In this document: positions 2,158 through 34,951 of the stretch, in pieces
How the letters are laid out: the number at the start of each line of letters is the position of its first letter
Numbering within the stretch: the first letter of the stretch is position 1
Assembly (NCBI GenBank): GCA_965197905.1
Contig: CBDAOB010000004.1
Location: 352,001 to 416,000 of the forward strand
Direction: 5' to 3'
From: Candidatus Latescibacterota bacterium
GTDB taxonomy: Bacteria; Latescibacterota; UBA2968; UBA8231
DNA length: 64,000 nt
Program-made: the position numbers and the translations under genes
The notes under the pieces: generated by a model
What the model was told of the DNA's origin: nothing
What the model saw: only the letters and a program-made list of their open reading frames with translations
Databases searched by the model: none

Positions 2158-2318
2158 CAGCCCGTGGTGAAAGGCCCTTGGATGGCGAGGCCGTGCAATT
2201 ACAGACGAGATCAAGGCGTGCGAGTGAGACGCATCTGAGAGCTGCGGCGATCGAGCGCAACGCAAGAGATCGGCTGCAATAGCCGGCCGCAGCCCCAATG
2301 GATTTTTGCCACGGGCTG
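2158..2318 (+). mobile_element. 161-bp MITE-like hairpin element, copy A
   Basis: TIR CAGCCCGTGG (2158-2167)/CCACGGGCTG (2309-2318), directly after CTAG (ADH stop); 52-nt core CAAGGCG...CAACGC at 2212-2263. Confidence 0.75.
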
Positions 2319-2351
2319 ATTGTCCCTTTCCACATCCTCTAGCTGAAGCGC

Positions 2352-3047
2352 GTGCGCAAAAAGGACTTAAAAGCGACGCTCGACCGACATCGCCAATGGC
2401 TCGAGTCGGACGGAGCAGAAGGAAGGCGACTCGACCTTCAGGGTGCCCATCTCTCTCGAAGTGATTTCAGCGGCGTCGATTTCCGCCAGGCAGATCTGCG
2501 ATGGGCAGATCTTCGGCGCGCCAACCTTGAGGATGCCCAGCTGCGGTCTGCCAATCTTCATGGCGCCAATCTGCGGAAAGCGAATCTGCGGGGGGCCGAC
2601 CTCGGCGGCGCCGATCTCAGCATGGTAGAGGCGTGCAGGGCGAACCTGAACAGCGCGGATTTGAGTGGTGCCATCGGGAAGGGAGCCGACTTCAATCAGG
2701 CTGAGCTTCGGGAAGCGAACCTTTCAATGGGGACGTTCAGCGGTGCCGGGTTCGCCGATGCCGATATGAGCGGAGCCAACTTCAGCGACGCGAATCTCAG
2801 AGGTGCCGATTTCTACGAATCCCTCCTGATCGGAGTGAATTTCGAGGGCACCAGCCTGGAAGCCGCCAACCTGATTGCCGCAAAGGAGTTGATGGTCAGC
2901 CAGCTGACGGGCGCGAAGACCCTGTTCAGGGCCCAGCTGGAGTCCGACCTGCGCACCGCGGTGATGATCGAGCACCTCGAGCTGTTCGAGGATCCTCCGG
3001 ACGGGAGATCGCCCCTGGACTCGGACCCAGCCACTTCCGATCATTAG
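2352..3047 (+). CDS. Pentapeptide repeat protein
   Basis: N-terminal 'LDRHRQWLESDG.EG.R.DL' followed by many A(D/N)Lxx repeats. Confidence 0.95.
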   Translation: MRKKDLKATLDRHRQWLESDGAEGRRLDLQGAHLSRSDFSGVDFRQADLRWADLRRANLEDAQLRSANLHGANLRKANLRGADLGGADLSMVEACRANLNSADLSGAIGKGADFNQAELREANLSMGTFSGAGFADADMSGANFSDANLRGADFYESLLIGVNFEGTSLEAANLIAAKELMVSQLTGAKTLFRAQLESDLRTAVMIEHLELFEDPPDGRSPLDSDPATSDH

Positions 3048-3075
3048 GCCTGACTTTTATACAGGAGAAACGTCC

Positions 3076-4332
3076 ATGTCATACCCGAAAATGATCCGCG
3101 TCCGGCAACAGTTCGAGGCGCCAGATGTCGACGACATCCCGGCAACGGTGCACGCCGAAATCAGAGGTCTGAATCTATCCGGAAGGGTGACTCCCGGGCA
3201 GTCGGTGGCGGTGACCGTGGGGAGCAGGGGTGTCGCTAATATCGCCTTGATCACCAAGACGATTGTGGAGGCATTGAAAGAGCTCCAGCTCGAACCCTTT
3301 CTCGTTCCGGCCATGGGAAGTCACGGTGCCGGCATCGCCGAGAATCAACGCAAGATCATCGAGGAGTACGGGGTAACGGAGGAGTACGCGGGCGCCCCCA
3401 TTCGCGCCTCGATGGAAACGGTGCAAGTGGGGACGATAGAAGATGGAGTCCCGGTCTACTTCGACAAACATGCCTACGAGGCCGATCATGTGGTCGTTGT
3501 CGGTCGCGTAAAGCCCCACACGACATTTGTCGGCGAGATCGAGAGCGGACTGCACAAGATGATGTTGATCGGTCTCGGCAAACGTAAAGGGGCGGAGCTT
3601 TACCACCGGGCGATCGTACAGTACAGCTTCGATCGCATCGTGCGCGCGGTAGCCCAGACGGTCATCGAGCAATGCGGCGTCCTGTTCGGGCTCGGCATCG
3701 TGGAAAACCAGCATGACCGCACCGCGCTTGTGCGCGCCGTCGCTCCGGAAAACTTCGCCGAAGGCGAGAAGGAACTCCTGATCCTCGCCAAGAAATGGAT
3801 GCCGCGCCTGCCGTGCGACCGGGCGGACTTGCTGATCGTTGACGAAATGGGCAAGAATATCAGCGGCTCCGGGATGGACAGCAACGTGATCGGCCGCAAG
3901 TTTCTCGACCACCGCGCCGCCGAGAAGGAATTCCCCAAGATCACCCGGATCTACGTCCGCGATCTCACCGAGGAAACCCACGGCAACGCCGCGGGACTCG
4001 GGATGGCGGAGTTTACCCACAAAAAATTGGTAGACAAGCTGGACCTCGAGATGACCTACATCAACGTGCTCACCGGCGGTCACCCCCCGTCGGGAGCGAT
4101 ACCGATCTATCTAGATTCCGACCGGAAGATCCTGGATGTGGCGTTGAAATCGGTCGGTCTGGTCGCACCCAAGGACGCCAAGGTCGTGCGCATTAAAAAC
4201 ACCCTGGAGGTCGTCGAGGTCCTCGTTTCCGAGGTATACGGACCGGAGGTGAACAAACGCGACGATCTGACCGCCCTCGGTGGACCATCGGAGATGGAAT
4301 TCGACGCCAACGGCGATCTTCTGCCTTTCTGA
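3076..4332 (+). CDS. Lactate racemase (LarA)-like / DUF362 domain protein, possible nickel-pincer isomerase
   Basis: VGSRGVANI, PAMGSHG, RVKPHT.F.G.IESGL.KM..IGLGK and GKNISGSGMD.NVIGR motifs; RBS AGGAG. Confidence 0.8.
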   Translation: MSYPKMIRVRQQFEAPDVDDIPATVHAEIRGLNLSGRVTPGQSVAVTVGSRGVANIALITKTIVEALKELQLEPFLVPAMGSHGAGIAENQRKIIEEYGVTEEYAGAPIRASMETVQVGTIEDGVPVYFDKHAYEADHVVVVGRVKPHTTFVGEIESGLHKMMLIGLGKRKGAELYHRAIVQYSFDRIVRAVAQTVIEQCGVLFGLGIVENQHDRTALVRAVAPENFAEGEKELLILAKKWMPRLPCDRADLLIVDEMGKNISGSGMDSNVIGRKFLDHRAAEKEFPKITRIYVRDLTEETHGNAAGLGMAEFTHKKLVDKLDLEMTYINVLTGGHPPSGAIPIYLDSDRKILDVALKSVGLVAPKDAKVVRIKNTLEVVEVLVSEVYGPEVNKRDDLTALGGPSEMEFDANGDLLPF

Positions 4333-4409
4333 TAACGGGCGGCCCTCCAGGTTCCTCCATCACGGCTGCGCCTGGGCGCTGACAGCCGGCCACTTCTGAG
4401 TCTATTCCG

Positions 4410-4982
4410 TTGAGCTTCCAAGAGGCGTTCGCCTCCTTTCCCGAGCTCGAATCGGAGCGCCTGGTGTTGCGCTGGGTCGAAGCTGCGGACGCTCCAACCC
4501 TATTCACTCACTTTGCGACCTTACGTGCAGACCGATTCTGGGATATAGAGCATCGATCGGTGGAAGATGCCCGTCAGCACATCGATCTGATTCACACCTG
4601 GTACGAAGAGCAGCGCCTCTTGTGGTGGGCGGTTACCCTCAAAGGCGAGTCGGAGGTATTCGGGTCGTGTTCCCTCTACGATTTTGAGCGCGAGTCCCGC
4701 GCCGAGATCGGTTACTGGTTGTCGCGACACAAACAGGGAATGGGAATCGCGACCGAAGCAGTAGAGCGGGTTGTCCGCTTCGGATTCGACCACTTGGACC
4801 TGCACCGGATCCAGGCCAGCTGCCATCCACAGAACCACGCAGCGGTGGCGGTGGTACGACGTGCCGGCTTTCGAGAAGAAGGGCTGTTGCGAGAGTACGA
4901 ACCGGGTCGTACCGGCTGGCGCGATTGCCTGATGTTTTCGTTGCTCAAGGGGGAAGCGCGCGCCGCAGCTGTCGATTCTTGA
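4410..4982 (+). CDS. GNAT N-acetyltransferase, RimJ/RimL family
   Basis: LESERLVLR, AEIGYWL...QGMGIATEA, LDLHRIQA...N.A...GFREEGLLRE. Confidence 0.9.
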   Translation: MSFQEAFASFPELESERLVLRWVEAADAPTLFTHFATLRADRFWDIEHRSVEDARQHIDLIHTWYEEQRLLWWAVTLKGESEVFGSCSLYDFERESRAEIGYWLSRHKQGMGIATEAVERVVRFGFDHLDLHRIQASCHPQNHAAVAVVRRAGFREEGLLREYEPGRTGWRDCLMFSLLKGEARAAAVDS

Positions 4983-5052
4983 TAGGCATTCGTGGTCCAG
5001 CTATATTCTCCCGCCCATCGCCCCTGTTTCCGTTTTCCAGAGAAAGGTACCC

Positions 5053-6129
5053 ATGAGCAGTAATGTTCCCGTCCGCGTCGGTCAGATCGGTTGTGGTCAT
5101 TGGGCGAGTTCATCCTGGCTGCCCTACATCGGCAGCTGTCCCGACGCCGAAATCGTCGCGCTCTGCGATCTCGATCTAGGTCGCGCGCGTCAGCTACGCG
5201 AGGAATTTTTTGGTGACATTCCGGAGGATTCGCGGCCGCGCCTCTACGACGATTATCACAAAATGATTGCCGACGGTTCACTGGACATGGTAATTGCCGG
5301 CACGCTCGCCGGAGCGCGTCCCCCCATGACCATTACTGCGCTGGAGGCCGGGCTCCCGGTACTGGCCGCGAAACCGATGGCACCGAACCTCACCGACGCC
5401 GAAGCCATGTTGGAGGCGGCCGAGAAATCAGGATCGTTGCTCATGGTGGGATACAACTACCGCTTCCGCGACGATGCCCGCGTTGTGCACAAATTCATCA
5501 AGGACGGCGGTATCGGTAAACCGTTGTTTGCCCGAGCCTGGGCACACTCACCAGGCATTCCCAGCTACGCCCCCCATTACAAACGCTCGGTCTCGGGAGG
5601 CGGGGCTCTGGCCAGCACCGGCGTCCATCCCTTGGATCTGGCGGTCTGGTTTCTGGGATGTCCCAAGCTGGTGTCGGTGGACGGCGTGTCGAGCGCCCAT
5701 TTCGAGGAGTTCGATTCCCTCCCGGAGGACCTTGAGCATATTCGCGGCGAATGCGACATCGACCTGTTGGTCTCGGGCTTAGCCCGTTTCGATGACGGCA
5801 CGACCCTCGCGACCGAGAGTATCTGGATGTCCGCCACCAACGGGACAGGGGTGGAGGTGTGGGGCACCCGCGGCCGGGCATCCATGGTGCCGTTAGAGCT
5901 TCACAGCTGGGAAGCCGGCGCTTTCGTGGACAAAACAGAGGAGGTCGCCCCCGGGCTCGCTGCTTCGTTCAAGGACACGAAGGTGCGCATGGAGAGGGAG
6001 GTTCACCACTTCGTCGACTGCGTGCTCGGGCGCTGTAAGCCCCTCGTCACGCCCGTTGAGATGTGGACGGACCAGGCGATCATGGATGCGTTATACACCG
6101 GGGGCCGGTCGTTTGCCGACGAGGGCTAG
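5053..6129 (+). CDS. Gfo/Idh/MocA family oxidoreductase
   Basis: IGCG Rossmann start, KPMA, VGYNYRF and GGGAL...GVHPLD motifs. Confidence 0.9.
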   Translation: MSSNVPVRVGQIGCGHWASSSWLPYIGSCPDAEIVALCDLDLGRARQLREEFFGDIPEDSRPRLYDDYHKMIADGSLDMVIAGTLAGARPPMTITALEAGLPVLAAKPMAPNLTDAEAMLEAAEKSGSLLMVGYNYRFRDDARVVHKFIKDGGIGKPLFARAWAHSPGIPSYAPHYKRSVSGGGALASTGVHPLDLAVWFLGCPKLVSVDGVSSAHFEEFDSLPEDLEHIRGECDIDLLVSGLARFDDGTTLATESIWMSATNGTGVEVWGTRGRASMVPLELHSWEAGAFVDKTEEVAPGLAASFKDTKVRMEREVHHFVDCVLGRCKPLVTPVEMWTDQAIMDALYTGGRSFADEG

Positions 6130-6291
6130 GAGCGTGTCCGAGAATCCCAATTGAGCTAAAGGTGCGTCATTGCTGCCGCTATCCGCGTTGCGCTACTCTC
6201 TCTGAATTCCCCAATTCAGATCGCTCCCACGCCTTGCCATCGACAACCATGACGCCCAAGCGCCTGTCAAAGCGAATACCCGGACACGCTC
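6130..6291 (-). mobile_element. 162-bp MITE-like hairpin element, copy B (core on minus strand)
   Basis: TIR GAGCGTGTCCG (6130-6140)/CGGACACGCTC (6281-6291), flanked by CTAG/CCAG; core GCGTTG...CGCCTTG at 6185-6236. Confidence 0.75.
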
Positions 6292-6307
6292 CCAGTCTGG
6301 CGAGCGA

Positions 6308-7224
6308 TTGAAGCAGCACGTCCCCACCGGCCGCCGCGCACTTGGCATCGGGCTGGCGTTGGTGACCGCCTTCGGGTGGGGCACGCTCCCGATTGCCCTC
6401 AAGGGTCTGCTCACTGTCGCCGATCCGTTTACCATTACCTGGTTTCGTTTTATCATCTCCGCCCTCCTGCTGGGATGTTTGCGTCCCGCGATTTCCACGC
6501 CGCGACGCGGCTCCGGGGAAAATCGCTGCTGGTCATGGCCGTTGCCGCCGTCGGCCTGGGCAGCAGCTACATCACCTACATCCTCTCTCTCAAGTTTCTT
6601 TCTCCCAGCACCACCCAGATCGTCATTCAACTGTCTCCCGCGTGTGTGCTGTTCGGCAGCCTGCTGCTCTTCAAAGAGCCGTTCGGCGCCAGACGCTGGA
6701 CCGGGTTCTTGATCCTGGCGATAGGATTGGCTCTGTTCTTCAATCAGCGATTCGACGAACTCCTCGGAGGGGTAAACGATCTCGCGACAGGCATCCTTCT
6801 TCTGGCGGGCGCCGCGCTGGGATTCGCCGCCTTCGCCCTGTGCCAGAAACTCCTGCTCAGCGCCGTCTCTTCAACCGCGATCATGTTTCCGCTGTTCTTG
6901 GCCGGATCCCTTTTCTTCGTTCCAGTGTCTCAACCCATGGATCTCCTTCGGCTTCAAGGGACCGACCTTGCCATACTCGTGGCTTGTGCCGTGAGCACCT
7001 TGATCTCGTTTATGGCTTACTCTACGTCGATGCGACATCTGGAGACATCGCGGGTCAGCGTGGTCACGGCGACGGCACCCCTGTTCACCATATCGGCGAT
7101 GTTGATCCTGGCTCCGCTGGCGCCGGACCGATTCCAGGCGGAGTCTCTCAACACAGCTAGTCTCGTCGGAGCCGCGATGGTCGTCGTCGGCTCCATGCTC
7201 AGCTCCATCGGCTCGTCGCGATAA
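6308..7224 (+). CDS. DMT/EamA family transporter (YhbE-like), single frameshift at about 6472
   Basis: ORF 6308 gives 'GLALVTAFGWGTLPIALK...TITWFRF'; the EamA sequence continues in the 6376-7224 frame; one extra G in the GGG at 6472-6474 joins them. Confidence 0.8.
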
Positions 7225-7234
7225 CGCGGGATCC

Positions 7235-8497
7235 GTGAAAGTCACCATTTCAGCCATTTTGAGTGCCCTCGTACTACTCGTGGCAGCGCTGGCAATCTAC
7301 GACTACGTTGCCGGAGAGCGAAACAAGAATGCGGCTCTAGTCGCAGCGGTAAAGCAGAACGAGCTCGCCGACACTCAAACCCTCCTCAGAGACGGTGCGA
7401 GTCCGAACACGGTTGACGAGAATGGCGTTTCGCTGTTGAACCTCGCGGTTGCCAAACGCAATCTGACCGTAGTCGAGACCCTGCTGGAAGGCGGTGCCGA
7501 TCCGAACAGAAGTGGCCGCTCGGGCAGCACTGCACTGCGCGCAGCCCTCGAACAGAACGCGCCCGATATCGTCGCCACCCTGCTGGAGCACACGGCCGAC
7601 CCCCATGCAGAGTACGAGGGCGGCAGGACCGCCCTCCACCTGGCGGCTGACTGGGGTTATGAGAAGATTGTGCGCCACCTGTTGGCCGCCGGCGCCCAGC
7701 CGAATGTTCGTTCCGGAGGTGGGGATACCCCGCTCATGGCCGCGGCGATTCGGAATCATCCGGAAGTCGTGAAAGTCCTTTTGGAGAAGGGTGCTGATCC
7801 CAATCTCGCCATGGCCGACGGAGCGACAGCGCTCATGGCCGCAGCGGACCGCGGGTTTTCCGAGGTAGCAGTTGTCTTGCTCCGCGGCGGCGCCGACCCC
7901 AATGCTTTCTTCGCCGACAGCACGACGGCGTTGGCCTGGTCTGCGGACAGGGGCAATAAAACCATCGCCCGGGCGCTGTTGGATGCCGGCGCCGATACCG
8001 AGGCGCGGTCGCGGGACAGCGCCACTAGCCTCATTATCGCCGCCAGCCGCGGTCACCTGGAAATCCTGCGACTATTGCTGGCGGCGCGTGCAAATCCGAA
8101 CAACCCGATGGACGGACAGTTCACCGCACTGATGGCGGCAGCCCGGGCGGGGCACATGGGAGCGGTGAGGATGTTGCTCGATGCCGGCGCCGATCTTCAC
8201 GCTAGGGATGAGGAGTCTATGACGGCATTCATGTTGGCGGCGGTCCGCGGCCAGACCGAGACTGTCGGATTCTTTCTGCACCGAGGTCTGGATCCAGACG
8301 TCAAGAACAGATACGATGAACGCCCTCTCATGCTAGCTGCCGGTGAGGGACACGCGGGGATCGTTCGCTTGCTGGTGGAAGCGGGTGCCGACTTGAACGT
8401 CGTCGATTCGAGCGGTGCCACCGCGCTGGACGCCGCCATGGAGAATGACCACGACGAAGTGGTGCACTTGTTGTTGAAGATGGGTGCCCGCCCTTAG
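7235..8497 (+). CDS. Ankyrin repeat protein with N-terminal membrane anchor
   Basis: Hydrophobic N-terminus, then about 11 G.TAL..AA..G...V..LL..GADPN repeats. Confidence 0.9.
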   Translation: MKVTISAILSALVLLVAALAIYDYVAGERNKNAALVAAVKQNELADTQTLLRDGASPNTVDENGVSLLNLAVAKRNLTVVETLLEGGADPNRSGRSGSTALRAALEQNAPDIVATLLEHTADPHAEYEGGRTALHLAADWGYEKIVRHLLAAGAQPNVRSGGGDTPLMAAAIRNHPEVVKVLLEKGADPNLAMADGATALMAAADRGFSEVAVVLLRGGADPNAFFADSTTALAWSADRGNKTIARALLDAGADTEARSRDSATSLIIAASRGHLEILRLLLAARANPNNPMDGQFTALMAAARAGHMGAVRMLLDAGADLHARDEESMTAFMLAAVRGQTETVGFFLHRGLDPDVKNRYDERPLMLAAGEGHAGIVRLLVEAGADLNVVDSSGATALDAAMENDHDEVVHLLLKMGARP

Positions 8498-8589
8498 CTA
8501 CTCACGGGATTCGTTGCCAACTATGCCGTAATTGATAGATTGCTTGCGAAGAAGCCCAGGACCGGAAAGAGTGCGACAGGAGCTTGTGC

Positions 8590-9402
8590 ATGGCCATCAC
8601 CCCATTCTTCGCGATCGCTCTAACCACCCTTGCGCTGCTGCTGAACGGGTGCGCAGGCCTGTATGCAGATCGTTCCGGCGTCCGGTCGCGTCACAACATT
8701 TCCGGATTCGTCCACCTGACGCTGATTTACGGCAGGGATTTCAGACCCGCTGCTCCACGAAGCATCATTGAACTTGCTGAGGCGATCAATAGATTTACGA
8801 ATGTCCGCGCCGAGATCGACGGACACCTCTTTCTGGATTCCGACGACCTGCATTCCTACCCATTCATCTACATCGGCGTCGACCGCGCCTTCACTCCGAC
8901 TCGAGAAGAACTAGCCAATCTGAAGTATTACTTATGGAACGGAGGATTTCTTTTTCTCGAAAACATCCAGTCTAACCGGGAGTACAGCCAGGCAGAGGCC
9001 TCACTGCGAGACATGATGAAGAAAACCCTGGGCAGCAAGGCGCGTTTTCGGATCCTGTCCAACAAGCATGGAATCTATCACAGTTTCTTCGATTTTGACG
9101 ACGGTCCCCCGCATTCGGCACCGAATTTGGATCCCTCGGCAGTCGTGGTTTCCATTCTGCCGCCTCTGGAGTTCGGACCGGAGCCGTTGGGGCGCGATGA
9201 GGTCCCCTTTTTCGAAGGCATATTCCTCAACGGCCGGCTCGCCGCTGTCTTCTCCAACAAGGCGCTCGGCCGGGCATGGGAGCGGGAGTTTCGCAATGAA
9301 CCCCATTTGAAGATGGGCGTAAACCTGGTGTTGTTCGCCTTGACTCAGCCGGGAGCCATGGCCCAGAGGAACGCCGAGATCTACCGGGAAGCCAACCCTT
9401 GA
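8590..9402 (+). CDS. DUF4159 domain lipoprotein
   Basis: Lipobox LLNGC; 'YPFIYI...E..NLK.YL.NGGFLF' and 'KMGVNLVLFALTQ'. Confidence 0.8.
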   Translation: MAITPFFAIALTTLALLLNGCAGLYADRSGVRSRHNISGFVHLTLIYGRDFRPAAPRSIIELAEAINRFTNVRAEIDGHLFLDSDDLHSYPFIYIGVDRAFTPTREELANLKYYLWNGGFLFLENIQSNREYSQAEASLRDMMKKTLGSKARFRILSNKHGIYHSFFDFDDGPPHSAPNLDPSAVVVSILPPLEFGPEPLGRDEVPFFEGIFLNGRLAAVFSNKALGRAWEREFRNEPHLKMGVNLVLFALTQPGAMAQRNAEIYREANP

Positions 9403-10295
9403 TACAATCCCGCAGTGCAGTTTGGTTAGCCTCCAGATCGTGTCTCCTTTTCGTTCCGCTATGCTGCAGCCCCAAGACGACGGCGCTGACGGAGGTCGAC
9501 CCGCTGGTCGCCAGAGTCGATCTCACCATAGAAAACCCTGCGGGGGATCGGCACGAAATGCTGCTGATCCCCGCAGGCGAATTCGACATGGGTACCTACA
9601 ACGGGGACATTAACGAAGCCCCGAAACATGCGGTATTTCTGGATTCGTTCTACGTCGACAAATACGAGGTCAACAACGAGAAGTTTCTCAGCTTCCTGAC
9701 CGCATTGGGAAAACACAAAGATGAAAAAGGGAACGACCTGGTGGACATTCGCGATATCCAGTCTCCGTTCCGGTATGCAAACTATCGCTTTGAGCTCAAG
9801 TCGTCTCGACGGCGGCTCGACCTGGAGTTTCATCCAGTCACCGAGGTGACCTGGCGCGGCGCCGATGCGTACTGCCGTTGGGCGGGGTTTCGCCTTCCTA
9901 CCGAGGCCGAGTGGGAGAAGGCGGCGCGCGGTTTGGATGGGCGCGTCTATCCGTGGGGCAAGGTCTTCAGCAGCAAGAAGGCCAACAGCATGCAAGGCGC
10001 TCGAGTTCACATAGCCACCGCGCGGGTCGGTCATTATCCCGGCGGCATTTCGCCGTTTGGCGTGCACGACATGTCCGGCAACGTCCAGGAATGGGTCGCG
10101 GACCGCTACTCCAAGACCTACTACGAGCTGGAAGAGGGTGTCAATCCGAAGGGCCCGTCCTCGGGGCTTGGGCGCGTACTCCGTGGCGGCTCCTGGCGGG
10201 ACAACATCAAGTTCGTCACCACCACTGCCAGGACCGGCGCGGGCCCCAACACCTCCTCTGACCACATCGGATTCCGGTGCGCCAGATCTCTGTGA
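9399..10295 (+). CDS. Formylglycine-generating enzyme family protein (SUMF1/EgtB/PvdO)
   Basis: IPAGEFDMG, FRLPTEAEWEKAARG, DMSGNVQEWV, RVLRGGSW and IGFRCA. Confidence 0.92.
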   Translation: MIQSRSAVWLASRSCLLFVPLCCSPKTTALTEVDPLVARVDLTIENPAGDRHEMLLIPAGEFDMGTYNGDINEAPKHAVFLDSFYVDKYEVNNEKFLSFLTALGKHKDEKGNDLVDIRDIQSPFRYANYRFELKSSRRRLDLEFHPVTEVTWRGADAYCRWAGFRLPTEAEWEKAARGLDGRVYPWGKVFSSKKANSMQGARVHIATARVGHYPGGISPFGVHDMSGNVQEWVADRYSKTYYELEEGVNPKGPSSGLGRVLRGGSWRDNIKFVTTTARTGAGPNTSSDHIGFRCARSL

Positions 10296-10300
10296 CCCGA

Positions 10301-11008: not shown

Positions 11009-11017
11009 CCGACGTCA

Positions 11018-11899: not shown

Positions 11900-11990
11900 T
11901 TTTCTCCTGCAACTGAGTTTGGTTTTCGAACTACCGGGCAGCGTCGCGGACACAAGGTAAGGCGGCAAAAATAGGCCGGCAACCGCCTAG

Positions 11991-12151
11991 TGTGCTGTCG
12001 CAGAGATAAGTTGACAAAATTCGGCCGTTGAGGCAGCGCGGTTCGCAAGGCGGCTGAGCGAGCCGTACTGGTGGAGTACGGCGAGCGAAGTCAACGCGGC
12101 GAACCGCGATGGATCGGCGGCAGTATGTTGACAGATTTCTGCGACAGCACA
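11991..12151 (+). mobile_element. 161-bp MITE-like hairpin element, copy C
   Basis: Perfect 14-bp TIR TGTGCTGTCGCAGA/TCTGCGACAGCACA after CTAG; core at 12046-12097 with GCCGTACT/AGTACGGC hairpin. Confidence 0.8.
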
Positions 12152-12153
12152 CT

Positions 12154-14055
12154 TCAGCTTCTCCGTACACGCACGTCGCCCTGGCGCTCGGTGGTCCCTT
12201 CGCGATCGAAAAGACTGAGGAAAGCCATAGCCGATTTCCGGTTGCTGCTGATCAGGTCGCGGAAGGTCGCCACCGTCACCTCTCCGTGAATCTGCAGATG
12301 AGCCAAAAGCTCCTGGCGCACCGAGTCGACCAACGAGCGATGCGCCAACAGGCCACCCTCGAGGGCTGCCACAGTGCCCAGACTCTGCAATGCGTTCAAC
12401 ACGTTAATTACTCCCTTCTCGTCGGCCTTGAGCTGTCGTGCAAGGGAGGACGCGTCCGGCATGGCGGCAGGTGTAGCCAGCTCGAGTTCGGTCTCGATCC
12501 GTTTCTTTAGGTCTTCCTCTTGCGGCGAAAATCGGATTCCGTGGTCCTTTGCCCTCACCACCGAGCCCTCGAGCGCGATCCGTCCGCTCTCGGCCAGGTG
12601 GTCCAGTACGCGGTCGAACAACTCCTGGCGAACGTAACGGGCGGTTAGACTGCGCAGTTCCTGGCGACGCAGACCTTGCTTCAACGGGTTGTCAGCATGG
12701 TACGCCTGCAGCCCGGCGTAGACGGCGGCGGTCAATCCTTCCCAATGAACGGTGTGTATGGCGCTGACTCGATGTTCGAGCTCGCGGGTAACCGCATAGC
12801 CGTTCGACTCCAATTGGTGCAGAATCTCTGTCATCTCCTCGACGCCGCGACCGCAACCTCCCGCCAGCTCGGTTACGCTACAGAATTCGTTAGTCACCAG
12901 GCGCAGCTTGGCCTCGACGGCACCCGCTAGATCGCCGGTCTCTAGTGCCTGTCTCTGGGCTTGCAACGCTTCATCGGCGGATTTGCGTTTGCGCGGATGA
13001 GGTTCCAAAACTTGACCGCCACCTATCGTAATCGGCGGCGAGTAGCGGCGGATGACAAAGCGGTCTCCCCAAGCGGCAACCACTGGTGACTCGAGCCGCA
13101 GCTGGGCGAGCGCTTCATCTCCTTTCTCCAGCACCTCGCGATCGAGCAGCACCACCCGGGCGAGGATCTCGGTGGTGCCGACGTGGAGCCGCACGCGCGC
13201 GCGCTGTGCCAGCTCGCGGGGACTGGATGACAACAGTTTCAGGGTGACGTCCAGCATGTGGGTGGGTCGCAGGAAGTCGGGGCTCGCGAGGGTATCTCCA
13301 CGCTGGATCTCGCTCTGCTCGAGGCCGGGCAGATTGATCGCCGCCCTGTCTCCGGTTTGGACCGCCTCTACAAGCTCTCCATGCTGTTGTATACCGCGCA
13401 CCCGTATCTGGCGGCATGAGGGCAGCATCTCGATCATCTCCCCTTCGCGCAAACTGCCCGATAGAACCGTTCCGGTACTGACCAGACCGAATCCTTTGAC
13501 CACGAAGGTGCGATCCACCGGTAGCCGGAACGGCCCTAGATCCTGTCGCGCCCTCGTCTCCTTGATCATTCGCCGCAGGTGATCCTCGAGCTGATCGATG
13601 CCGTCCCCGGTGAGCGCCGACACGCGTATGATCTCCGCATCTTGCATACCGGTACCGCTGACCAGATCGCGGATCTCCTCCTCCACCAGGTCGAGCCAGT
13701 CCGCTTCGGCCAGGTCCACCTTGTTCAGGGCGATGACACCCCGGGTCACACCCATGAGATCGAGAATGTCCAGATGCTCGCGGGACTGCGGCATGACCCC
13801 GTCGTCGGCGGCGATGACAAACAGGCCGATGTCGATCGTGCTCACCCCGGCTACCATGGTTTTGACGAAGCGCTCGTGACCGGGCACATCGATGATGGTG
13901 GCTTCATCTCCGAAGAACGCGAAACCGAGCTCAATAGTTATTCCTCGGGCTCTCTCCTGGGGAGCGCGGTCGGTGTCGACACCCGTGAGACCTTTGACGA
14001 TCAGCGTTTTGCCGTGGTCGATATGTCCGGCCGTGCCTATGACAGTGTGGCTCAT
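12154..14055 (-). CDS. selB: Selenocysteine-specific translation elongation factor
   Basis: IGTAGHIDHGKT, RGITIELGFA, DVPGHERFVKTM, RFVIRRYSP..TIGGG and C-terminal winged helix (FRD...SNRK). Confidence 0.96.
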   Translation of the reverse strand: MSHTVIGTAGHIDHGKTLIVKGLTGVDTDRAPQERARGITIELGFAFFGDEATIIDVPGHERFVKTMVAGVSTIDIGLFVIAADDGVMPQSREHLDILDLMGVTRGVIALNKVDLAEADWLDLVEEEIRDLVSGTGMQDAEIIRVSALTGDGIDQLEDHLRRMIKETRARQDLGPFRLPVDRTFVVKGFGLVSTGTVLSGSLREGEMIEMLPSCRQIRVRGIQQHGELVEAVQTGDRAAINLPGLEQSEIQRGDTLASPDFLRPTHMLDVTLKLLSSSPRELAQRARVRLHVGTTEILARVVLLDREVLEKGDEALAQLRLESPVVAAWGDRFVIRRYSPPITIGGGQVLEPHPRKRKSADEALQAQRQALETGDLAGAVEAKLRLVTNEFCSVTELAGGCGRGVEEMTEILHQLESNGYAVTRELEHRVSAIHTVHWEGLTAAVYAGLQAYHADNPLKQGLRRQELRSLTARYVRQELFDRVLDHLAESGRIALEGSVVRAKDHGIRFSPQEEDLKKRIETELELATPAAMPDASSLARQLKADEKGVINVLNALQSLGTVAALEGGLLAHRSLVDSVRQELLAHLQIHGEVTVATFRDLISSNRKSAMAFLSLFDREGTTERQGDVRVRRS

Positions 14056-14188
14056 TGCGAGGATAGCTGGTGTGGCGGACACCGAGGCGTCCGGTTGTCC
14101 AGTTTGTGTGAAGCGATATTTTGGGTGGTGAAAGATATTCCGGTCCAGATGGCTACACAACTTGATCGCGAGGATTCCGGAGAGCAAT

Positions 14189-14812: not shown

Positions 14813-14815
14813 ATC

Positions 14816-17305: not shown

Positions 17306-17319
17306 CCGCCGTGGCGCGC

Positions 17320-18105: not shown

Positions 18106-18199
18106 CAGATACTCCTCGCATTAGTTGTGAAAACCGCGGCCGATAGACGCGGCTTTTCCGTTGTTGTAATTTGCATTCTCTCTCGGAGGTATTCGTCAA

Positions 18200-19393
18200 A
18201 TGCGATGGGCTTCTTCAGTTTCTTCCAGTGACAATTTAAATGACGCGATTCGGGAAATGGGAGATGACATCCAACAGAAGCTCCACGGATCCCGTCCCGA
18301 TTTTCTCATCGCCTTTGTGTCACCCGGTTTCCCGGAAAGCTACGGCAAAATTCCAGGCCTCGTCCAGGACTTGATCGGCCCGCAGGTATTCCTGGGATGT
18401 ACGGCGATGGGTGTTATCGGCGGGGGCCAGGAGATCGAGCACCAGGTCGCTGGGCGGGCGGCGGTGTCGATGGCCGCCGCGCTTCTGCCCGATGCCGAGG
18501 TGACCACCTTCCATATCGAAGCCGACGACCTGCCAAGCCCCGATGACGGCCCCGATGAATGGGTTCGGGTTCTGGGGGTTCCCCAAGATCCGACGCCCCA
18601 CTTCGTGCTGCTCGGCGATCCGCGCTCGCTCTATCCCCAACCGCTGCTGATGGGTCTGGACTTCGCCTATGGCGGCAGCGCCAAGATCGGTGGACTGGCT
18701 TCTTCAGTCAGCGAGGGAAACGTCCTGTTTGTCGACGATGCCCACCATACGTCGGGGCTCGTGGGGGCCGCCTTCAGCGGCAACGTGGCGATCGATACGG
18801 TGGTCGCCCAGGGGTGCCGCCCTATCGGAGACCCTCTATCTGTAACCGAATGCGACCGCAACAATCTGGTGCAGCTGGACGACCGCTCCGCCCTCGAGGT
18901 GCTGATGGAGCTCTTCCAGTCACAACCCCCCGATGAGCAGGATCTGATTCGCACCGCGCTGCACATCGGCATCGCGACCACTGAGTTCAAGAGTCCCTTG
19001 GAACAAGGCGACTTTTTGATACGCCACGTCATCAACATCGATCAAGAGCGCGGCACCATCGGGGTGGACGAGTCGATTCGCAACGGTCAGACGGTGCAGT
19101 TCCATCTGCGTCACGCCGAGGCCGCCACGGAAGACCTGAACGTTATGCTCGGCAACTACCGGAGCAACAAACCTGCGACCGACCCTGCCGGCGCGTTGCT
19201 TTTCAGCTGTACGGGTCGGGGCGCCTACCTGTTCGGACAACCGAATCACGACTCCGACGCGTTCGCCAACAACATCGGGAGCCTTCCTGTGGGCGGATTC
19301 TTCTGTGCCGGCGAGATTGGCCAAGTCGGCGGATCCACCTACATGCACGGCTACACCAGCTCCTTCGGGATCTTCAGGCCGGAACACGCCTAG
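18200..19393 (+). CDS. FIST N/C domain signal-transduction protein
   Basis: GCTAMGVIG, IGGLAS, VAQGCRPIG, LFSCTGRG and GFFCAGEIG...HGYTSS. Confidence 0.9.
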   Translation: MRWASSVSSSDNLNDAIREMGDDIQQKLHGSRPDFLIAFVSPGFPESYGKIPGLVQDLIGPQVFLGCTAMGVIGGGQEIEHQVAGRAAVSMAAALLPDAEVTTFHIEADDLPSPDDGPDEWVRVLGVPQDPTPHFVLLGDPRSLYPQPLLMGLDFAYGGSAKIGGLASSVSEGNVLFVDDAHHTSGLVGAAFSGNVAIDTVVAQGCRPIGDPLSVTECDRNNLVQLDDRSALEVLMELFQSQPPDEQDLIRTALHIGIATTEFKSPLEQGDFLIRHVINIDQERGTIGVDESIRNGQTVQFHLRHAEAATEDLNVMLGNYRSNKPATDPAGALLFSCTGRGAYLFGQPNHDSDAFANNIGSLPVGGFFCAGEIGQVGGSTYMHGYTSSFGIFRPEHA

Positions 19394-19396
19394 GCG

Positions 19397-19969
19397 CTAG
19401 TTGAAAACCTCCAGATCCACTCTGCGCAACTCCGCGTACTCAGCTCCGCCGGGATTGAGAGTACTCTGCATCAGGTGAATGGATTCGATCGGAATGGTCG
19501 CTGCCAGCGGCGGCTCCTTCCAGACCGCTTCATCCGGAACGCTGAGCGTGCCTCGCACCCTTCCGAGAGTAAGATGAGGATGGAATGACCGACCTTCGCG
19601 CGGCCACCCGATTGCTAGCAAGGAAGTATCCAGCCGTTCTCTGAGACCAAGGAGACCGCCCCCGGGATCGAGCATTCCCACCCATATGACTTTAGGGCGA
19701 CGCCGATTCGGAAAATAGCCCAGATTCCCCAGCGTCGCCTCGAAGCGACCGAATCGCGATACCGCCTCCGCCATCACCTGGCCAATCTCGGGAACAGCCG
19801 CCGGGCTCGTTGGTCCCAGGAACCGCACCGTCAGATGCAGTTGGTGAGCGGCCGACCAGCGCACCAGACCGGGCGGCAGGGTGCGGGCCAGCCGGGTGCT
19901 GAGGTCGATCAGAGAAGATCGCACCTCAGGCGCCAGCGAAACCGCCACGAATGTTCTTATTTCTTTCAT
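19397..19969 (-). CDS. thpR: RNA 2',3'-cyclic phosphodiesterase (2H phosphoesterase)
   Basis: RTFVAV and two HxT motifs (HLTVRFLG, FHPHLTLGR). Confidence 0.92.
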   Translation of the reverse strand: MKEIRTFVAVSLAPEVRSSLIDLSTRLARTLPPGLVRWSAAHQLHLTVRFLGPTSPAAVPEIGQVMAEAVSRFGRFEATLGNLGYFPNRRRPKVIWVGMLDPGGGLLGLRERLDTSLLAIGWPREGRSFHPHLTLGRVRGTLSVPDEAVWKEPPLAATIPIESIHLMQSTLNPGGAEYAELRRVDLEVFN

Positions 19970-19992
19970 TGTGATTATGCGCTGCCCCTCCG

Positions 19993-20021
19993 TTGACACC
20001 TGCACATCAGTACAGTATATT
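19993..20021 (+). promoter_or_regulatory. Sigma70 promoter of uvrA with SOS-box-like dyad in the spacer
   Basis: TTGACA-17-TATATT; spacer contains CTGCACATCAGTACAG (20000-20015). Confidence 0.7.
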
Positions 20022-20046
20022 CGACCCTTTCTCTCCCCAGCTACTT

Positions 20047-23000
20047 ATGGAATCCCGCAATATCCTGGTCCGCGGCGCCCGCGTTCACAACCTCAAGAAC
20101 GTCGATCTCGAACTTCCGAAAAATCAGCTGATCTGTTTCACCGGCGTTAGCGGATCGGGGAAATCCTCGATGGCGTTCGACACGCTGTACGCCGAAGGCC
20201 AGCGACGCTACGTCGCTTCCCTCTCCGCCTATGCCCGGCAGTTTCTCGGACAGATGGAAAAACCGGATGTGGACCAGATTTCCGGGCTCGCACCGACGAT
20301 CTCGATCGCGCAGAAGACCGGAGGTCACAACCCTCGTTCCACCGTCGGCACAATCACTGAGATCTACGACTACCTCCGCGTTCTTTACGCGCGCGTTGGT
20401 AGACCCCACTGCGTTCAATGCGGCAAACCGATCGGCGCCCAGAACCGCGGCCAGATCGGAGTCCAGATTGCGGCGCTGGGGAAAGGATCCCGCGTGCAGA
20501 TCCTGGCCCCTGTGGTCGAGCAGCGCAAGGGAGAATACAGCGAGCTCTTCGACGATCTGCAACGATCCGGTTTCCTGCGAATACGCGTCGACGGGCATAT
20601 CTACCAGCTGGAGGACGCTCCCCAGCTGGACCGCTACAGCCGCCACAACATCGAGGTGGTGATAGACAGACTGGTGCTGCGCGGCGAGGTGGATGCGCGG
20701 CTCGCCGAAGCGGTAGACAGCGCCTTGCAGATGGGGGAGGGACAGCTGATCCTCGCCCGCGACGACGAAGATGACTGGCTGCTCAGCGCCGATTTCGCCT
20801 GCGGCCGCTGCGGGATTTCGTATCGCGAGCTCACGCCCCAGATGTTCTCATTCAACAACCCACAAGGGATGTGTTCCGGGTGCGGTGGTCTCGGCACCCA
20901 GGTGCAGATGAAAGAGCAGCTGATGGTGCCCGACGCTAAGAAGTCCATATCCCAGGGCGCGATCGAACCGCTTGGGGACATCCGCAGCAATCGCTGGCGA
21001 CTTCATCTCTACGAAGGAGCCGCGGAACATCTGGGCTTCGATCTCAAGACTCCCTGGAACAAACTCTCCCAAAGTCAGAAGGAGAGTTTCCTCCATGGCA
21101 TGGGCGACGACAAGCTCGAGTTCACCTACACCAACGTGCGCGGCTATAGCTGGTCTCACAAGGACAAATACGAAGGTGTGCTCAAACACCTGGAGGACCG
21201 TTTCCACTCCGGCTCCGAGCGGGCGCGTCGAGGTTTGGAGCAGTACATGGGCACGCAGGTTTGTGTCCAGTGCCATGGCGGCCGGCTGTGCCCCGAGGCA
21301 CTGGCGGTTACCTTCGAGGACACTCGGCTGCACGAGCTCACCTCCTGGGCCATCGAGGACACTCGCGCCTTCTTCGAAAAAACGGACCTGGGTGAAACCG
21401 AACAGCTCATCGCCGAAGACGCTCTACAGGAGATCCGTGGACGTCTGCAGCTCCTGGTCGACATCGGCCTGGGATACCTGACCCTGGGTCGGGGCGCTCA
21501 CACCCTGTCCGGTGGTGAAGCCCAGCGGATTCGTCTGGCGAGCCAGATCGGCTCGGGTTTGGTAGGGGTTCTCTACGTCCTGGACGAGCCATCGATCGGC
21601 CTGCACCATCGCGACAACGAGCGCTTGCTGAGCACCCTCAAGAAGTTGCGCAGTATCGGCAATACGGTGGTGGTGGTGGAGCACGACGAGGACACGATTC
21701 GGCAGGCGGATCTGGTCTGCGATTTTGGTCCGGGAGCGGGCGAGCGCGGCGGCCAGCTGGTGATAAGCGGCGCACCGAAAGAGGTGGAAACCTGTGCCGG
21801 CTCGCTCACTGGTCAATACCTTACCGGGGCCTGCCAGATCGCTGTTCCGGAGAAACGGCGACAGCAAAACGGCCACTGGCTCGAGGTGGTAGGCGCCAGG
21901 CACAACAACCTGAAAAACATCACGGTCCGCATACCGCTGGGCCTTTTCACCTGCATCACCGGTGTATCCGGTTCGGGCAAGAGCTCCCTGGTAAACGACA
22001 TTCTGTTCAAGGCGTTGGACCGCAAGCTGCATCGAGCCCAGCTGGAGCCTGGGTCCCATGACAGCCTGCGCGGCGTCGAAGAGCTGGACAAGGTCATTCG
22101 CATCGACCAGAAACCGATCGGGCGCACCCCCAGGTCGAATCCGGCGACCTACACCAATGTCTGGACACCTATCCGGCAGCTCTTCGCGCAAGTGGCGGAT
22201 GCCAGGGTGCGCGGGTATCGGCAAGGACGTTTTAGCTTCAACGTGAAAGGCGGGCGCTGCGACGCCTGCGAAGGAAGCGGGGCGCACCTGGTGGAGATGG
22301 AATTCCTCTCCGACGTGTGGATCACCTGCGAAGTCTGTGACGGCCGGCGGTTCAACCGCGAGACCCTCGCGGTTAAATTCAAGGAAAAGTCGATCGCTGA
22401 CATCCTCGACATGGAGGTGGAGGAAGCGCTCTCCTTCTTCGAGAATCTCCCCCACATACATCGAATCTTGAAAACCTTGCACGATGTGGGATTGGGATAC
22501 ATAAAACTCGGCCAGCCCGCCCCCACCTTATCCGGCGGCGAAGCGCAGCGGGTCAAGCTGGCGAAGGAACTCTGCAGACGCGGCACCGGCCGCACCGTGT
22601 ACATCCTGGACGAGCCGACGACCGGTTTGCATTTCGCCGACGTGGAAAAGCTGCTGCGCATACTGCACACCTTCACCGGCCAGGGGAATTCGGTAGTGGT
22701 GGTCGAACACAACCTGGAGGTGATCAAGACCGCCGATCATGTCATCGATATGGGTCCGGAAGGCGGAGCGGCAGGTGGTCTGATAGTCGCCGAGGGCACC
22801 CCAGAGGTTCTGGCGGCGCATCGAGAGTCCCATACCGGTCAGGCCTTGAAGACGGTGCTCTCCAAGAGAGAGACGGCTTCCGTAACCTCCTCGCGACGTC
22901 GGCTTCAGCTCAATGGCCGTCCCATCAAACATATCGACGTAGTCGGCGCCCGGATGCACAACCTCCGCGATATCAACCTGCGCGTTCCCCGGGACAAGAT

Positions 23001-25710
23001 GACGGTTGTGTCCGGCGTCAGCGGATCGGGAAAATCCTCCCTCGCCTTCGATACGATCTACGCCGAAGGGCAGCGTCGCTACGTAGAGTCGCTTTCGGCC
23101 TACGCCCGCCAGTTCCTGGATCAGATGCAGAAGCCGAAGGTGGAGAAGGTCACCGGTCTATCTCCCGCTATCGCCATCGAGCAGAAAAGTCCGAGCAAGA
23201 ATCCGCGTTCGACCGTCGGCACGGTCACCGAGGTCTACGACTACCTGCGCGCACTGTTCGCCAACATCGGGGTCCAGTACTGCCCCAGATGCAACGTCGC
23301 GGCCGGCACCCAGACACCTCAACAGATCGTCGACCGCATCCTCGAGTCGTACGAGGACCACCGCATCCTGGTTCTGGCGCCTATTGAGCCGGCGAGGAAC
23401 GAGGGGTATGAGACCTTGTTGCAGCGCGCGCGCCAAGAGGGTTTCGCCCGGGTTCGAATCGGTGGCAAGATTCGCGACCTGGCAGAGGATATCGAGCTGG
23501 AGCGACGCCACCGGCATCGAGTAGAGCTGGTTGTGGATCGGCTAAGCTCTCGCGTGCGGGATCGGGGTCGCCTGAACGAGTCGGTGGAGCGCTCCGTGGA
23601 ACTTTCGGGCGGCGAGATCGTCGTGTTGTCAGCCGAAGACAACAAGGAGTCCCGCTTCAGCAAGAGCTTTTCCTGCCCCCAATGCGGGCGCAGTTTCGAT
23701 CCGCTCAACCCGAGGCGATTTTCCTTCAACCATAACGAGGGCATGTGCCAGGTCTGCGAGGGGCTCGGGGTCGACGAGGGATTTGATCGAGACCTGGTGT
23801 TCCGCGATCGAAAATTGAGTGTCCGCGCCGGCGCGGTGGCCGCCTGGGGAGAGCTGAACGATTCCGATTTCGCCCGCATGCTGAAAGCTGCCGGGGAGCA
23901 GCTCGGGTTCGATATAGATACCCCGGTAGCGCGTTTGGGTGCGGATGCCGTCCGCGTTCTGCTCTACGGCGACCCGCACCGCAAGCTGTCCATGGGCAAC
24001 GGACTGCAAGTGGCCTATAGGGGGCTGCTGCATCCGATCGACGAGTTTATCCGCACCTCTAAGCGGTTCAAGAAGATGCTGCGCGAAGTGCCCTGCTCGG
24101 CTTGCGAGGGTAGTCGACTCAAGTTGGAGAGTCGCAACGTGCGCATCCGCGATTCGACGATGGTGGATTTGACCCGGCGACCCATGAGTGAATGCCTGCA
24201 GTTCTTCATGGAGGTGCAGCTGGCCCCTAGAGAAGAGGAATTGGCAGGCGAGCTGTTGCAGGAGATCCGCCAACGCCTGCAGTTTCTCGATCGGGTCGGG
24301 CTCGGTTATATAAGTCTGGAACGTCGCGCAGCGACCTTGTCTGGGGGTGAGGCCCAACGCATCAGGCTGGCAAGCCAGATTGGCTCGGGACTTACCGGCG
24401 TTCTTTACCTGCTCGACGAACCGACCATTGGGCTACACGCTCGGGATACCCACCGGCTGTTGGACGCACTCAACGATTTGAAGGAGCTGGGAAACACCCT
24501 GATCCTGGTGGAACACGATCGCGAGACCCTCGAGCGCGCCGATTTTATCGCCGACCTCGGCCCGGGCGCGGGACGAAGCGGCGGAGAGCTGGTGGCGTGC
24601 GGAACGCCCGACAAGGTGAAACGCAGCCGCGCGTCGAAGACCGGCGCCTATCTCCGCGGCCGGCTGCAGATTGACCTTCCCGCTCGCAAGCGTCGAAAAA
24701 AGACCGGATCGTTGACACTTAAAGGGGCGCGGCAGAACAACCTCAAGAATATCGATGTGGAATTTCCCCTCGAATCGTTCATCTGCGTAACCGGCGTTTC
24801 CGGCTCGGGCAAGAGCTCGTTGGTGCAGGACACGTTGCACAACGCTCTGGCCAGCAAGATCCAGGGCACTCGATGCGAGCAGGGTGAGTACGACGCGCTG
24901 ACGGGACTCGAGCAAATCGACAAGATCATCGACATCGACCAGAGCCCCATTGGCCACTCGCCGCGCAGCACGCCGGCGACAGTCATGGGGGTGTTCAACC
25001 TCATCCGCCAGCTCTACTCCCAGCTCCCCGATGCCAAGGTGCGGGGGTTCGCGCCAGGCCGCTTCAGCTTCAACCGGCCCGGCGGCCGTTGCGAGTCGTG
25101 CGAAGGGTTGGGCTGGCGCTGTATCGAAATGCATTTTCTGCCCGACGTCTGGGTAAGGTGCGATCATTGTCAGGGCAAACGTTTCACGGCGGAGATCCTC
25201 GAGATCCAGTTCAAGGGCCGTTCCATCGTTGACGTACTCGAGATGACCGTAGACCAAGCGGTGGGCGTGTTCGACAATGTTCCCAACATCTCCAAGAAAC
25301 TGCAGACGATGGAGGACGTGGGCTTGGGATACATGTCTCTTGGACAGTCGTCGACCACCTTCTCCGGCGGCGAAGCACAGCGGTTGAAATTGGCTACGGA
25401 GCTGGCTCGCCCCAGCACCGGAAACACCTTCTATATCCTGGACGAACCAACCACCGGGTTGCATTGCGCCGACATCCAAAAGTTGCTGCATGTCATCCAC
25501 CGTCTGGTCGCTTCGGGAAATACTGTGTTGGTGGTGGAGCACAATATGGATGTTATCAAGAATGCCGATCACATCATCGACCTCGGACCCGAAGGGGGAG
25601 ACGAGGGCGGCAAGATCGTGGCAATCGGAACGCCGAAGGCGGTCGCCTCCGCCTCCAAATCCCACACCGGCCGGGTGCTCAAACAGACCCTGGCGGCGGT
25701 TTCCGCGTGA
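20047..25710 (+). CDS. uvrA: Excinuclease ABC subunit A, tandem-fused double-length form (1887 aa)
   Basis: Two complete UvrA units; four GVSGSGKSS Walker A and four (L/F)SGGEAQR signatures; Zn-finger CxxC pairs; second unit starts near 22925. Confidence 0.96.
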
Positions 25711-25746
25711 GCGGGCTTGCCGTCCAGGCCTCTCTTGTGGGCTTCC

Positions 25747-26409
25747 ATGTTTGAACCCAACGTTCCGCGCCGCAGCTTCTTCGACTTCGCCTTCGTTTGC
25801 CCGCACCGTGCCCAACCACCCAAAATCGATGGAAATCTGCGGGATTGGTCTGCGGAAGAGATGCTGCCAGATCTGATGGGCGTCGACGGTGACAGCCGAT
25901 TCGCCAATCTGTTCGCCAGCTGGGACGACTCCGGGCTATACTTCGGCTTCGAGATCAGCCGCAAGACCACCTACAAGATCAAACCTAAAGAACCCGAGAG
26001 AGGGGACTGTCTGGAACTGTGGATCGACTCTCGGGACCTGAAGGATAGCCATCGCGCCAATAGGTACTGTCACCGGTTCTACTTCCTGCCGGGCGGCCGC
26101 GGGTCGGATGGCAAACAGCCAATCGGGCGACACACCCACATCGACGGGGCGAGGGAGCAATCCCCCCCTTGCCCTGAGGATGCGATCGAGATCGGACTGC
26201 GGCGTCTCAAGAGAAGCTGTCAGATGGAAATCAAGATTCCCGCTGAGGGTTTGAACGGATTCCAGCCGCGGGAATTCCGCCGCATTGGGTTCAACTACAT
26301 TCTTCACGACACCGAAAAGGGGCGTCAGTCATGGACGTGTAATGGCGACGAAGACCGCGGCAGTGACCCCAGTACATGGGGGACCCTCGAACTGCACGGG
26401 GAACTGTAG
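25747..26409 (+). CDS. CBM9/DOMON-like sugar-binding domain protein
   Basis: PKIDGNLRDW, WDDSGLYF, GDCLELWID, EIKIP, IGFN and DPSTWGTL. Confidence 0.7.
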   Translation: MFEPNVPRRSFFDFAFVCPHRAQPPKIDGNLRDWSAEEMLPDLMGVDGDSRFANLFASWDDSGLYFGFEISRKTTYKIKPKEPERGDCLELWIDSRDLKDSHRANRYCHRFYFLPGGRGSDGKQPIGRHTHIDGAREQSPPCPEDAIEIGLRRLKRSCQMEIKIPAEGLNGFQPREFRRIGFNYILHDTEKGRQSWTCNGDEDRGSDPSTWGTLELHGEL

Positions 26410-26570
26410 TGGCCTGTCGCGGAAATAGCTTACGGAAATTCTGGCGCCGAGGCGCCCGGCCCGCAAGGCGCCTGAGCGAAACCGTACTGTTCGAGTACGG
26501 CAAGAGAGGGCAACGCCACGGGTCGGGATGGATCGACGCCAGAAAACGGAATATATTCCGCGACCGGCCA
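26410..26570 (+). mobile_element. 161-bp MITE-like hairpin element, copy D
   Basis: TIR TGGCCTGTCGCGGAA/TTCCGCGACCGGCCA (1 mismatch) directly after a TAG stop; core at 26464-26516 with CCGTACT/AGTACGG hairpin. Confidence 0.8.
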
Positions 26571-26690
26571 CCTGTACTCGTGTATCCAGTACATCGAAGT
26601 TTTGTTATCTTTATCGGGTTACCAATGAATGCCATTGCCGACCACGTCCGGCGTTCTTAGGAACCGCACCACACCCATCCAACAAGGCTT

Positions 26691-34874: not shown

Positions 34875-34951
34875 GGGCGATTAGCTCAGGTGGTTAGAGT
34901 GCCTGCTTGACATGCAGGAGGTCGCTAGTTCAAGTCTAGCATCGCCCACCA
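34875..34951 (+). tRNA. tRNA-Val(GAC)
   Basis: Acceptor GGGCGAT/ATCGCCC, D arm TAGCTCAG.TGGTTAGAG, anticodon arm CCTGC-TTGACAT-GCAGG, T loop GTTCAAGT and encoded CCA. Confidence 0.97.

Follow-up and report, generated by a model that had tools for sequence, protein, structure and literature searches.

A folded core shared by miniature inverted-repeat elements with different transposase-type ends in a Latescibacterota genome and other bacterial phyla

We analyzed a 64,000-nucleotide stretch of a Candidatus Latescibacterota bacterium genome (GCA_965197905.1, contig CBDAOB010000004.1, positions 352,001 to 416,000; hereafter the window), which carries four intergenic hairpin elements, A to D, built around one conserved core. 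Element A (2157..2319, plus strand; 163 bp) is decayed at its right end and has four full copies in the source genome. It follows the TAG stop codon (2155..2157, plus strand) of an iron-type alcohol dehydrogenase open reading frame (ORF; 1006-2157), and the TA of this codon is the left target duplication of A, as inferred from the empty sites of other copies. Element B (6129..6292, minus strand; 164 bp, IS1182-type ends) adjoins the TAG stop of the ORF at 5053-6129, and element D (26409..26571, plus strand; 163 bp, IS630-type ends) adjoins that of the ORF at 25717-26409, so that A, B, and D all start at the TAG stop of the ORF upstream. Element C (11990..12152, plus strand; 163 bp, IS630-type ends) is flanked by genes that converge on it and stands beside the stop at 12154 of selB (12154-14187), which is encoded on the opposite (minus) strand. 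Directly downstream of A is a gene for a pentapeptide-repeat protein (2352-3047, plus strand), for which every family match fell under the cutoff.

The inverted repeats of the four elements pair at 10 of 10 (A), 11 of 11 (B), 14 of 14 (C), and 14 of 15 (D) positions. Between them lies the core, at 2212..2263 (plus strand) in A, 6185..6236 (minus strand) in B, 12046..12097 (plus strand) in C, and 26464..26516 (plus strand) in D. It takes the form CAAGGCG-N39-CAACGC in A, B, and C and CAAGGCG-N40-CAACGC in D; in A, CAAGGCG is followed by a GAGTGA/GATCGA loop, an apical hairpin, and CAACGC, and in C the loop reads GAGCGA/GAGCGA. These are the only core matches in the window (four, versus a mean of 0.04 in shuffled sequence, with none of 100 shuffles reaching four). 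The positions, the inverted repeats, and the presence of the core in each element, on the minus strand in B, confirm what had been predicted from this DNA. The predicted length of 161 to 162 bp was slightly short: the real ends are G..C, one base further out and inside the duplicated TA, giving 163 to 164 bp. Intact copies elsewhere in the genome read CTA[G..C]TAG, and the right-hand TAG is gone from all four window copies. The predicted fold of D is a single rod (z scores of -7.1 as RNA and -4.8 as DNA). A search of the window against Rfam 15 returned nothing matching the elements.

The source genome (G000; contigs C1 to C5) contains 145 TA-anchored inverted repeats of 80 to 400 bp, 27 of which fall in the 160- to 169-bp bin, against 1 to 8 in each of the other bins. 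Profile searches seeded from 25 entries (one locus twice) recovered 50 related loci in at least seven families. Mean identity between the families is 54 to 76%, and the ends are conserved inside each family. [quoted passage not shown] The unusual feature is the swapping of ends around one interior, not looseness of the terminal repeats.

To which transposases these ends correspond was assessed over the outer 18 bases of element and insertion sequence (IS). An IS1182 (C5:1127044-1128553) and an IS630 (C4:800599-801772) reside in the source genome, both outside the window. Element B matches the ends of the resident IS1182 at 17/18 and 14/18 positions. Element C matches IS630 ends at 14/18 and 13/18 (resident) or 16/18 and 15/18 (in the relative G110), and D does so at 11/18 and 10/18 (resident) or 14/18 and 12/18 (G110); another family, f2, is closest to a second IS630 type (13/18 and 12/18). 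The earlier assignments therefore held for C and D as IS630-like and for B as IS1182, whereas A, which reaches at most 11/18 with either an IS1182-like or an IS630 end, is left unassigned. In G004, a MITE of the core family and an IS630 are stacked on one common CTAG (L298 and L303), a possible route of end swapping. The source genome also holds a 72-bp element with A-type ends and another palindromic interior (C3:86801-86872); pieces related to it occur at C4:1926263, and others in locus L216, within its empty site.

Comparison with a genome of the same genus (G002) indicates mobility. A full-length model, R1, found 43 copies in G002; 12 have no orthologous site in the source genome, 8 are shared, and 23 of the 31 comparable sites are empty there, so that the empty sites expected in a relative were indeed found. 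At locus L210, the empty target CTAA corresponds to a filled CTA[G..C]TAA with a net gain of 163 bp, which makes the duplication TA rather than four bases (IS630-type families); filled and empty sites show the TA duplication at L212 and L228 as well. Many sites are imprecise, among them those of window copies B, C, and D. Element A is common to both genomes, with a left arm 19 bp shorter in G002, and its site lacks the element in G001 and G006. The sites of C and D are empty in G002, which carries about 60 other bases at the site of B, and a contig from run X5 also lacks element C. Across the phylum, the core is present in 33 of 168 genomes (reversed-pattern control, 0). One Psychrobium genome has 251 core matches, near-identical among the 100 matches listed; the ends of its element are matched by no IS among the IS630- and IS1182-model loci compared. 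Element C had no match when compared with plasmids, and a Streptomyces element matched 59 plasmid records, every one from Streptomyces.

The core motif (CAAGGCG, GAKYGA twice, CAACGC) recurs in several phyla. With no more than 23 core bases fixed and the ends left free, a search pattern matched ~2,400 stretches in GTDB. At least 120 loci, drawn from 4 of the 64 parts of the collection, belong to Actinomycetota, Bacillota, Gammaproteobacteria, Deltaproteobacteria, Latescibacterota, Gemmatimonadota, and one member of the Solibacteraceae. A flanking inverted repeat, in some cases an inner stem, is present at 101 of 122 cores. As a control for chance matches, viral contigs yielded 51 matches to a loose pattern, none with a terminal repeat, and 1 match to the strict pattern. 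Ends bounded by TA were found in 24 of 68 nonredundant cores, with an arm of 52 to 57 nucleotides (nt) in 23 of the 24, and 35 elements from these groups align with almost no gaps. Among 409 pairs whose interiors are at least 80% identical, the ends are at most 50% identical in 28; in one example, a single interior sits inside two Streptomyces end types. We regard the exchange of ends around a single folded interior as well supported.

Other size classes exist. A looser pattern matched 119 metagenomic stretches; the outer stem was present in 30, of which 23 also had a terminal repeat. It revealed a second class with an inner part of 57 to 62 nt and shorter arms. A 270-bp element with CTAG ends (L428:645-915) has two arms and two cores inverted to each other, which by description recalls the two arms given for CIR of Caulobacter (PMC2229807); CIR and RPE of Rickettsia are likewise described there as short palindromic intergenic repeats. 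The near-constant length that had been proposed as a maintained feature thus holds within one size class and fails beyond it, as other classes measure 86 to 157 bp and ERIC of Escherichia coli measures 127 bp. Arm lengths group by eye near 24, 35, and 55 nt, which we offer as a lead only. No description of the shared core was found in the literature searched, which consisted mostly of papers outside subscription journals, and the supplementary MITE catalogues of PMC11602168 may list such elements without comment.

Changes on both sides were seen at 36 of the 39 predicted pairs, and the core alignment scores 0.58 for covariation, against 0.19 when shuffled and 0.10 to 0.19 when slid, with all scores inflated by kinship among the sequences. 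With the 50 loci in the source genome, this supplies both the further copies and the covariation that were sought. In the short stem, two pairs are either Watson-Crick or tandem G-A pairs, the latter in 23 of 68 cores, and in the outer stem G-T pairs number 130 versus 21 A-C; the columns concerned are free in the pattern. The core strand folds better than its complement in 67 of 68 cases as RNA and 65 of 68 as DNA. A palindrome acting as a duplex would be expected to show no strand bias, so this asymmetry suggests that the structure matters as a single strand. From AT-rich Colwellia to GC-rich Streptomyces, the paired stems turn over while the CAAG/AAC bulges, which are unpaired, are retained; in the GTDB rows the pattern itself fixes the bulge columns, whereas in the families of the source genome it does not. 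Loops of the GC-GNA-GC type, whose particular stability is specific to DNA, are confined to some of the Streptomyces and Nocardioides copies. The earlier suggestion of a structured module carried by ends of different IS families stands: the module is conserved, covarying, and folded, and its carriers match both IS1182 and IS630 ends.

Variants within the copies of a family bear on where selection acts. We compared 77 of 87 copies from six families, dropping 10 copies in groups of fewer than four and removing G002 orthologues. Among private variants, 141 of 266 (53%) damage the fold or motif, close to the neutral expectation of ~57%, versus 36 of 101 shared variants (36%; P = 0.003). At paired sites, G-T-making and A-C-making transitions number 41:41 among private variants and 25:13 among shared ones (P = 0.07). 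Private variants that are near neutral and shared variants that spare the fold point to selection in the copying lineage.

The explanation that we prefer, with a probability of roughly 0.5, is that these MITEs are likely moved in trans by IS630 and IS1182 transposases and that their interior is a cis module, likely a copying aid that works as a folded single strand. One strand, when single-stranded, would fold into a rod of ~80 bp that joins the two ends. At a set distance from them (52 to 57 nt), the rod would display an invariant double bulge (CAAG/AAC) together with two G-A pairs in tandem. The candidate reader of this shape is a protein of the host or one associated with the transposase, which would favor end pairing or copy gain. 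Because such a benefit would be independent of the transposase family, the module would persist while the ends swap; the poor pairing of the complementary strand would also limit cruciforms and copy loss. A possible precedent by analogy is the rice Stowaway MITE Ost35, which belongs to the Tc1/mariner-IS630 superfamily, has a TA target as here, and has an interior that enhances transposition in experiments with Osmar transposases, according to PMC3660474. Ost35 is eukaryotic and its effect is experimental, whereas the role of the module described here is deduced, spans unrelated transposase families, and depends on the fold of one strand.

Several observations weigh against this explanation. 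Element A, at 11/18, has no clear cognate IS, and G002, despite its 43 copies, has no IS630 or IS1182 over the cutoff. Derivatives with intact ends and no core occur. Coreless deletion derivatives of family C, among them the one at C1:79834-79883 in the source genome, are joined between short direct repeats of both arms. Covariation in a palindrome can come from arm-to-arm conversion. Some shared variants may reflect recurrent mutation or changes linked within a subfamily, so that the P value of 0.003 is overstated. The folded molecule could be DNA or RNA, with the data leaning weakly toward DNA. Finally, orthologous copies in the source genome and G002 differ by only 5.0 to 6.1% (61/1,230 and 71/1,165 positions), against 13.5% for other intergenic DNA (11.6 to 15.0% in three well-sampled classes) and 25.0% at fourfold sites. 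This low divergence, less than half that of other intergenic DNA (P = 1.5 × 10−14; 8 to 9 loci), holds even for orthologous copies with broken ends, and the flanks diverge at an ordinary rate at seven of eight loci. It suggests that copies are constrained where they sit, as would not be expected if their role were purely selfish; host constraint and self-repair are the candidate causes.

Host constraint would follow if the core served the host after insertion, for example, as an RNA structure for transcript processing or stability at gene ends. An orientation-dependent effect of ERIC on mRNA stability, reported for Yersinia and reviewed in PMC2229807, would fit such a role, as would the stop codon that adjoins 26 of 36 copies in the source genome. 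The adjacency is already accounted for by the target, TA or CTAG. Moreover, in codirectional contexts the good folder is usually not the transcribed strand: the sense:antisense ratio of the folding strand is 5:18 in the source genome, 6:10 in G002, 7:7 among 30 Psychrobium copies, and, for the GC classes of the GTDB loci, 7:15, 2:2, and 5:5, with the counts outside the source genome resting on simple gene callers. The folding strand need not be in mRNA. Two congeners differ at 23 of 31 sites, 135 of 168 genomes of the phylum have no match, and private variants damage the fold at a nearly neutral rate. Differences between orthologues are dispersed over the whole element; the core third accounts for 19 of the 71. 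We consider a host function unlikely, even as the best surviving alternative.

Slow, evenly dispersed divergence also fits self-repair, and with it the idea that the core has no job: one old MITE, ancestral to all the families, would have had its ends swapped by recombination, and its covariation would reflect conversion between the arms of the palindrome. The end swaps are real, and all types favor TA or CTAG and stack beside IS copies (L298 and L303). Self-repair would remove mismatches, but CAAG/AAC remains as unpaired bulges in organisms as distant as Colwellia and Streptomyces; in addition, G-A tandems exchange with Watson-Crick pairs and G-T exceeds A-C six to one. An idle core is quite doubtful on these grounds.

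The strand asymmetry of the fold could instead mean that an imperfect, one-sided rod was selected for harmlessness only: copies would last longer if they escaped cruciform formation, cleavage by nucleases, and polar effects. In the older copies of the source genome, the folding strand does avoid mRNA (5:18) and lies on the C-rich strand in 28 of 36 cases (the skew is weak on C4); the recent Psychrobium burst is unbiased. For harmlessness any mismatches would do, and it would be left unexplained why different phyla keep a single motif at a constant spacing from the ends, which makes this account improbable. A REPIN-like origin, raised in the original prediction, with movement by an HUH nuclease (RAYT/Y1) or with palindromes that bracket a nuclease gene, would suit the hairpin form at gene ends, the TAG at one end of the window copies, and the signs of single-strand folding, but we reject it as highly improbable because, unlike REP/REPIN-RAYT systems, the elements have a TA target duplication and DDE-type (IS630/IS1182) ends, no intact HUH partner was found in the source genome, whose lone Y1_Tnp match (PF01797) has two internal stops and lies on C4 ~30 kb from the nearest catalogued copy, and no common neighbor gene was found. 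The last point rests on 2,551 ORFs around ~180 loci, compared all against all: no common nuclease cluster emerged, the clusters judged by eye were element-overlapping frames, transposases of one genome, and ordinary enzymes, and no nuclease gene was seen between two cores.

The window elements have close counterparts among known repeats. Like ERIC (also IRU or RU-1), the window elements are intergenic, have TA at their ends, and adopt a rod-like fold. In E. coli ERIC, CAAGGC..AACGC stands in equal register, with loops of the GAGYGA type. ERIC differs in length (127 bp versus 160 to 164 bp), in its inner part (60 nt versus 39 nt), in its arms (~24 nt versus 55 nt), and in its ends, and in many ERIC copies the motif is no longer complete. 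Full-length model R1 found no genome-wide match in E. coli (best local E value, 0.018). A core model, R2, placed 9 of 13 E. coli ERIC copies selected by BLAST in register, 4 of them at E < 0.005, against 13.5 bits for the best off-target match; a test on motif-selected ERIC copies was circular, as a non-ERIC locus scored 24.7 bits. The window elements work like ERIC and are probably its distant relatives, but length and ends exclude membership. An ISfinder comparison in PMC11602168 names MITEEc1_IS630, an entry that we infer to be ERIC; further background was drawn from PMC10969869 and PMC3184786. Two E. coli ERIC copies (L340 and L341) match the ends of a Psychrobium IS630 (L292, in G021) at 13 to 14 of 21 bases, which may indicate by which IS630 subgroup ERIC is moved. 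RUP of Streptococcus pneumoniae, an IS630-Spn1-type MITE, is also nonautonomous, with a TA target and ends like those of a resident IS630; compared by description only, it has a single end type, and no interior common to other families is reported for it (PMC2229807).

The likeness to ERIC invites a broader reading, which we hold tentatively and think probably too wide. Many bacterial MITEs across phyla, ERIC included, would form one superfamily around a portable "copy-me" module, a rod of single-stranded DNA in which a conserved host protein would recognize the CAAG/AAC bulges and tandem G-A pairs. The module would lie at one of a few set spacings from the ends (~24, 35, or 55 nt, possibly whole helical turns). 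IS630, IS1182, and other ends would be amplified by a replicative single-strand route, and the host might also keep inserted copies.

The interiors of MITEs are usually described as leftovers of IS deletion. One folded interior under unrelated ends in several phyla makes it testable why MITEs outnumber their parent IS, and it makes the purpose of the conserved ERIC middle testable as well. Such repeats are also likely to produce false small-RNA calls in annotation. When 12 related loci were searched against Rfam, the sole match was that of an E. coli ERIC copy (L078:1474-1597) to RF02818 (V_AS5; 44.9 bits, E = 7 × 10−7), which lies under the gathering score; neither the window nor these loci matched an existing family at its threshold. 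The V_AS5 family, annotated as a Vibrio antisense RNA, could itself be a repeat of the ERIC type.

Identical copies of a stretch 60 or more bases long occur at no fewer than eight sites in the source genome (C2:498; C3:5467, 277000, 314735, and 569517; C4:1827987; C5:1334478 and 2674138). This repeat is unrelated to the elements and is possibly an intron or an IS end. Elsewhere in the window are a gene for a UvrA of double length (1,905 amino acids; 19993-25710, plus strand) and a tRNA gene (34875-34948, plus strand).

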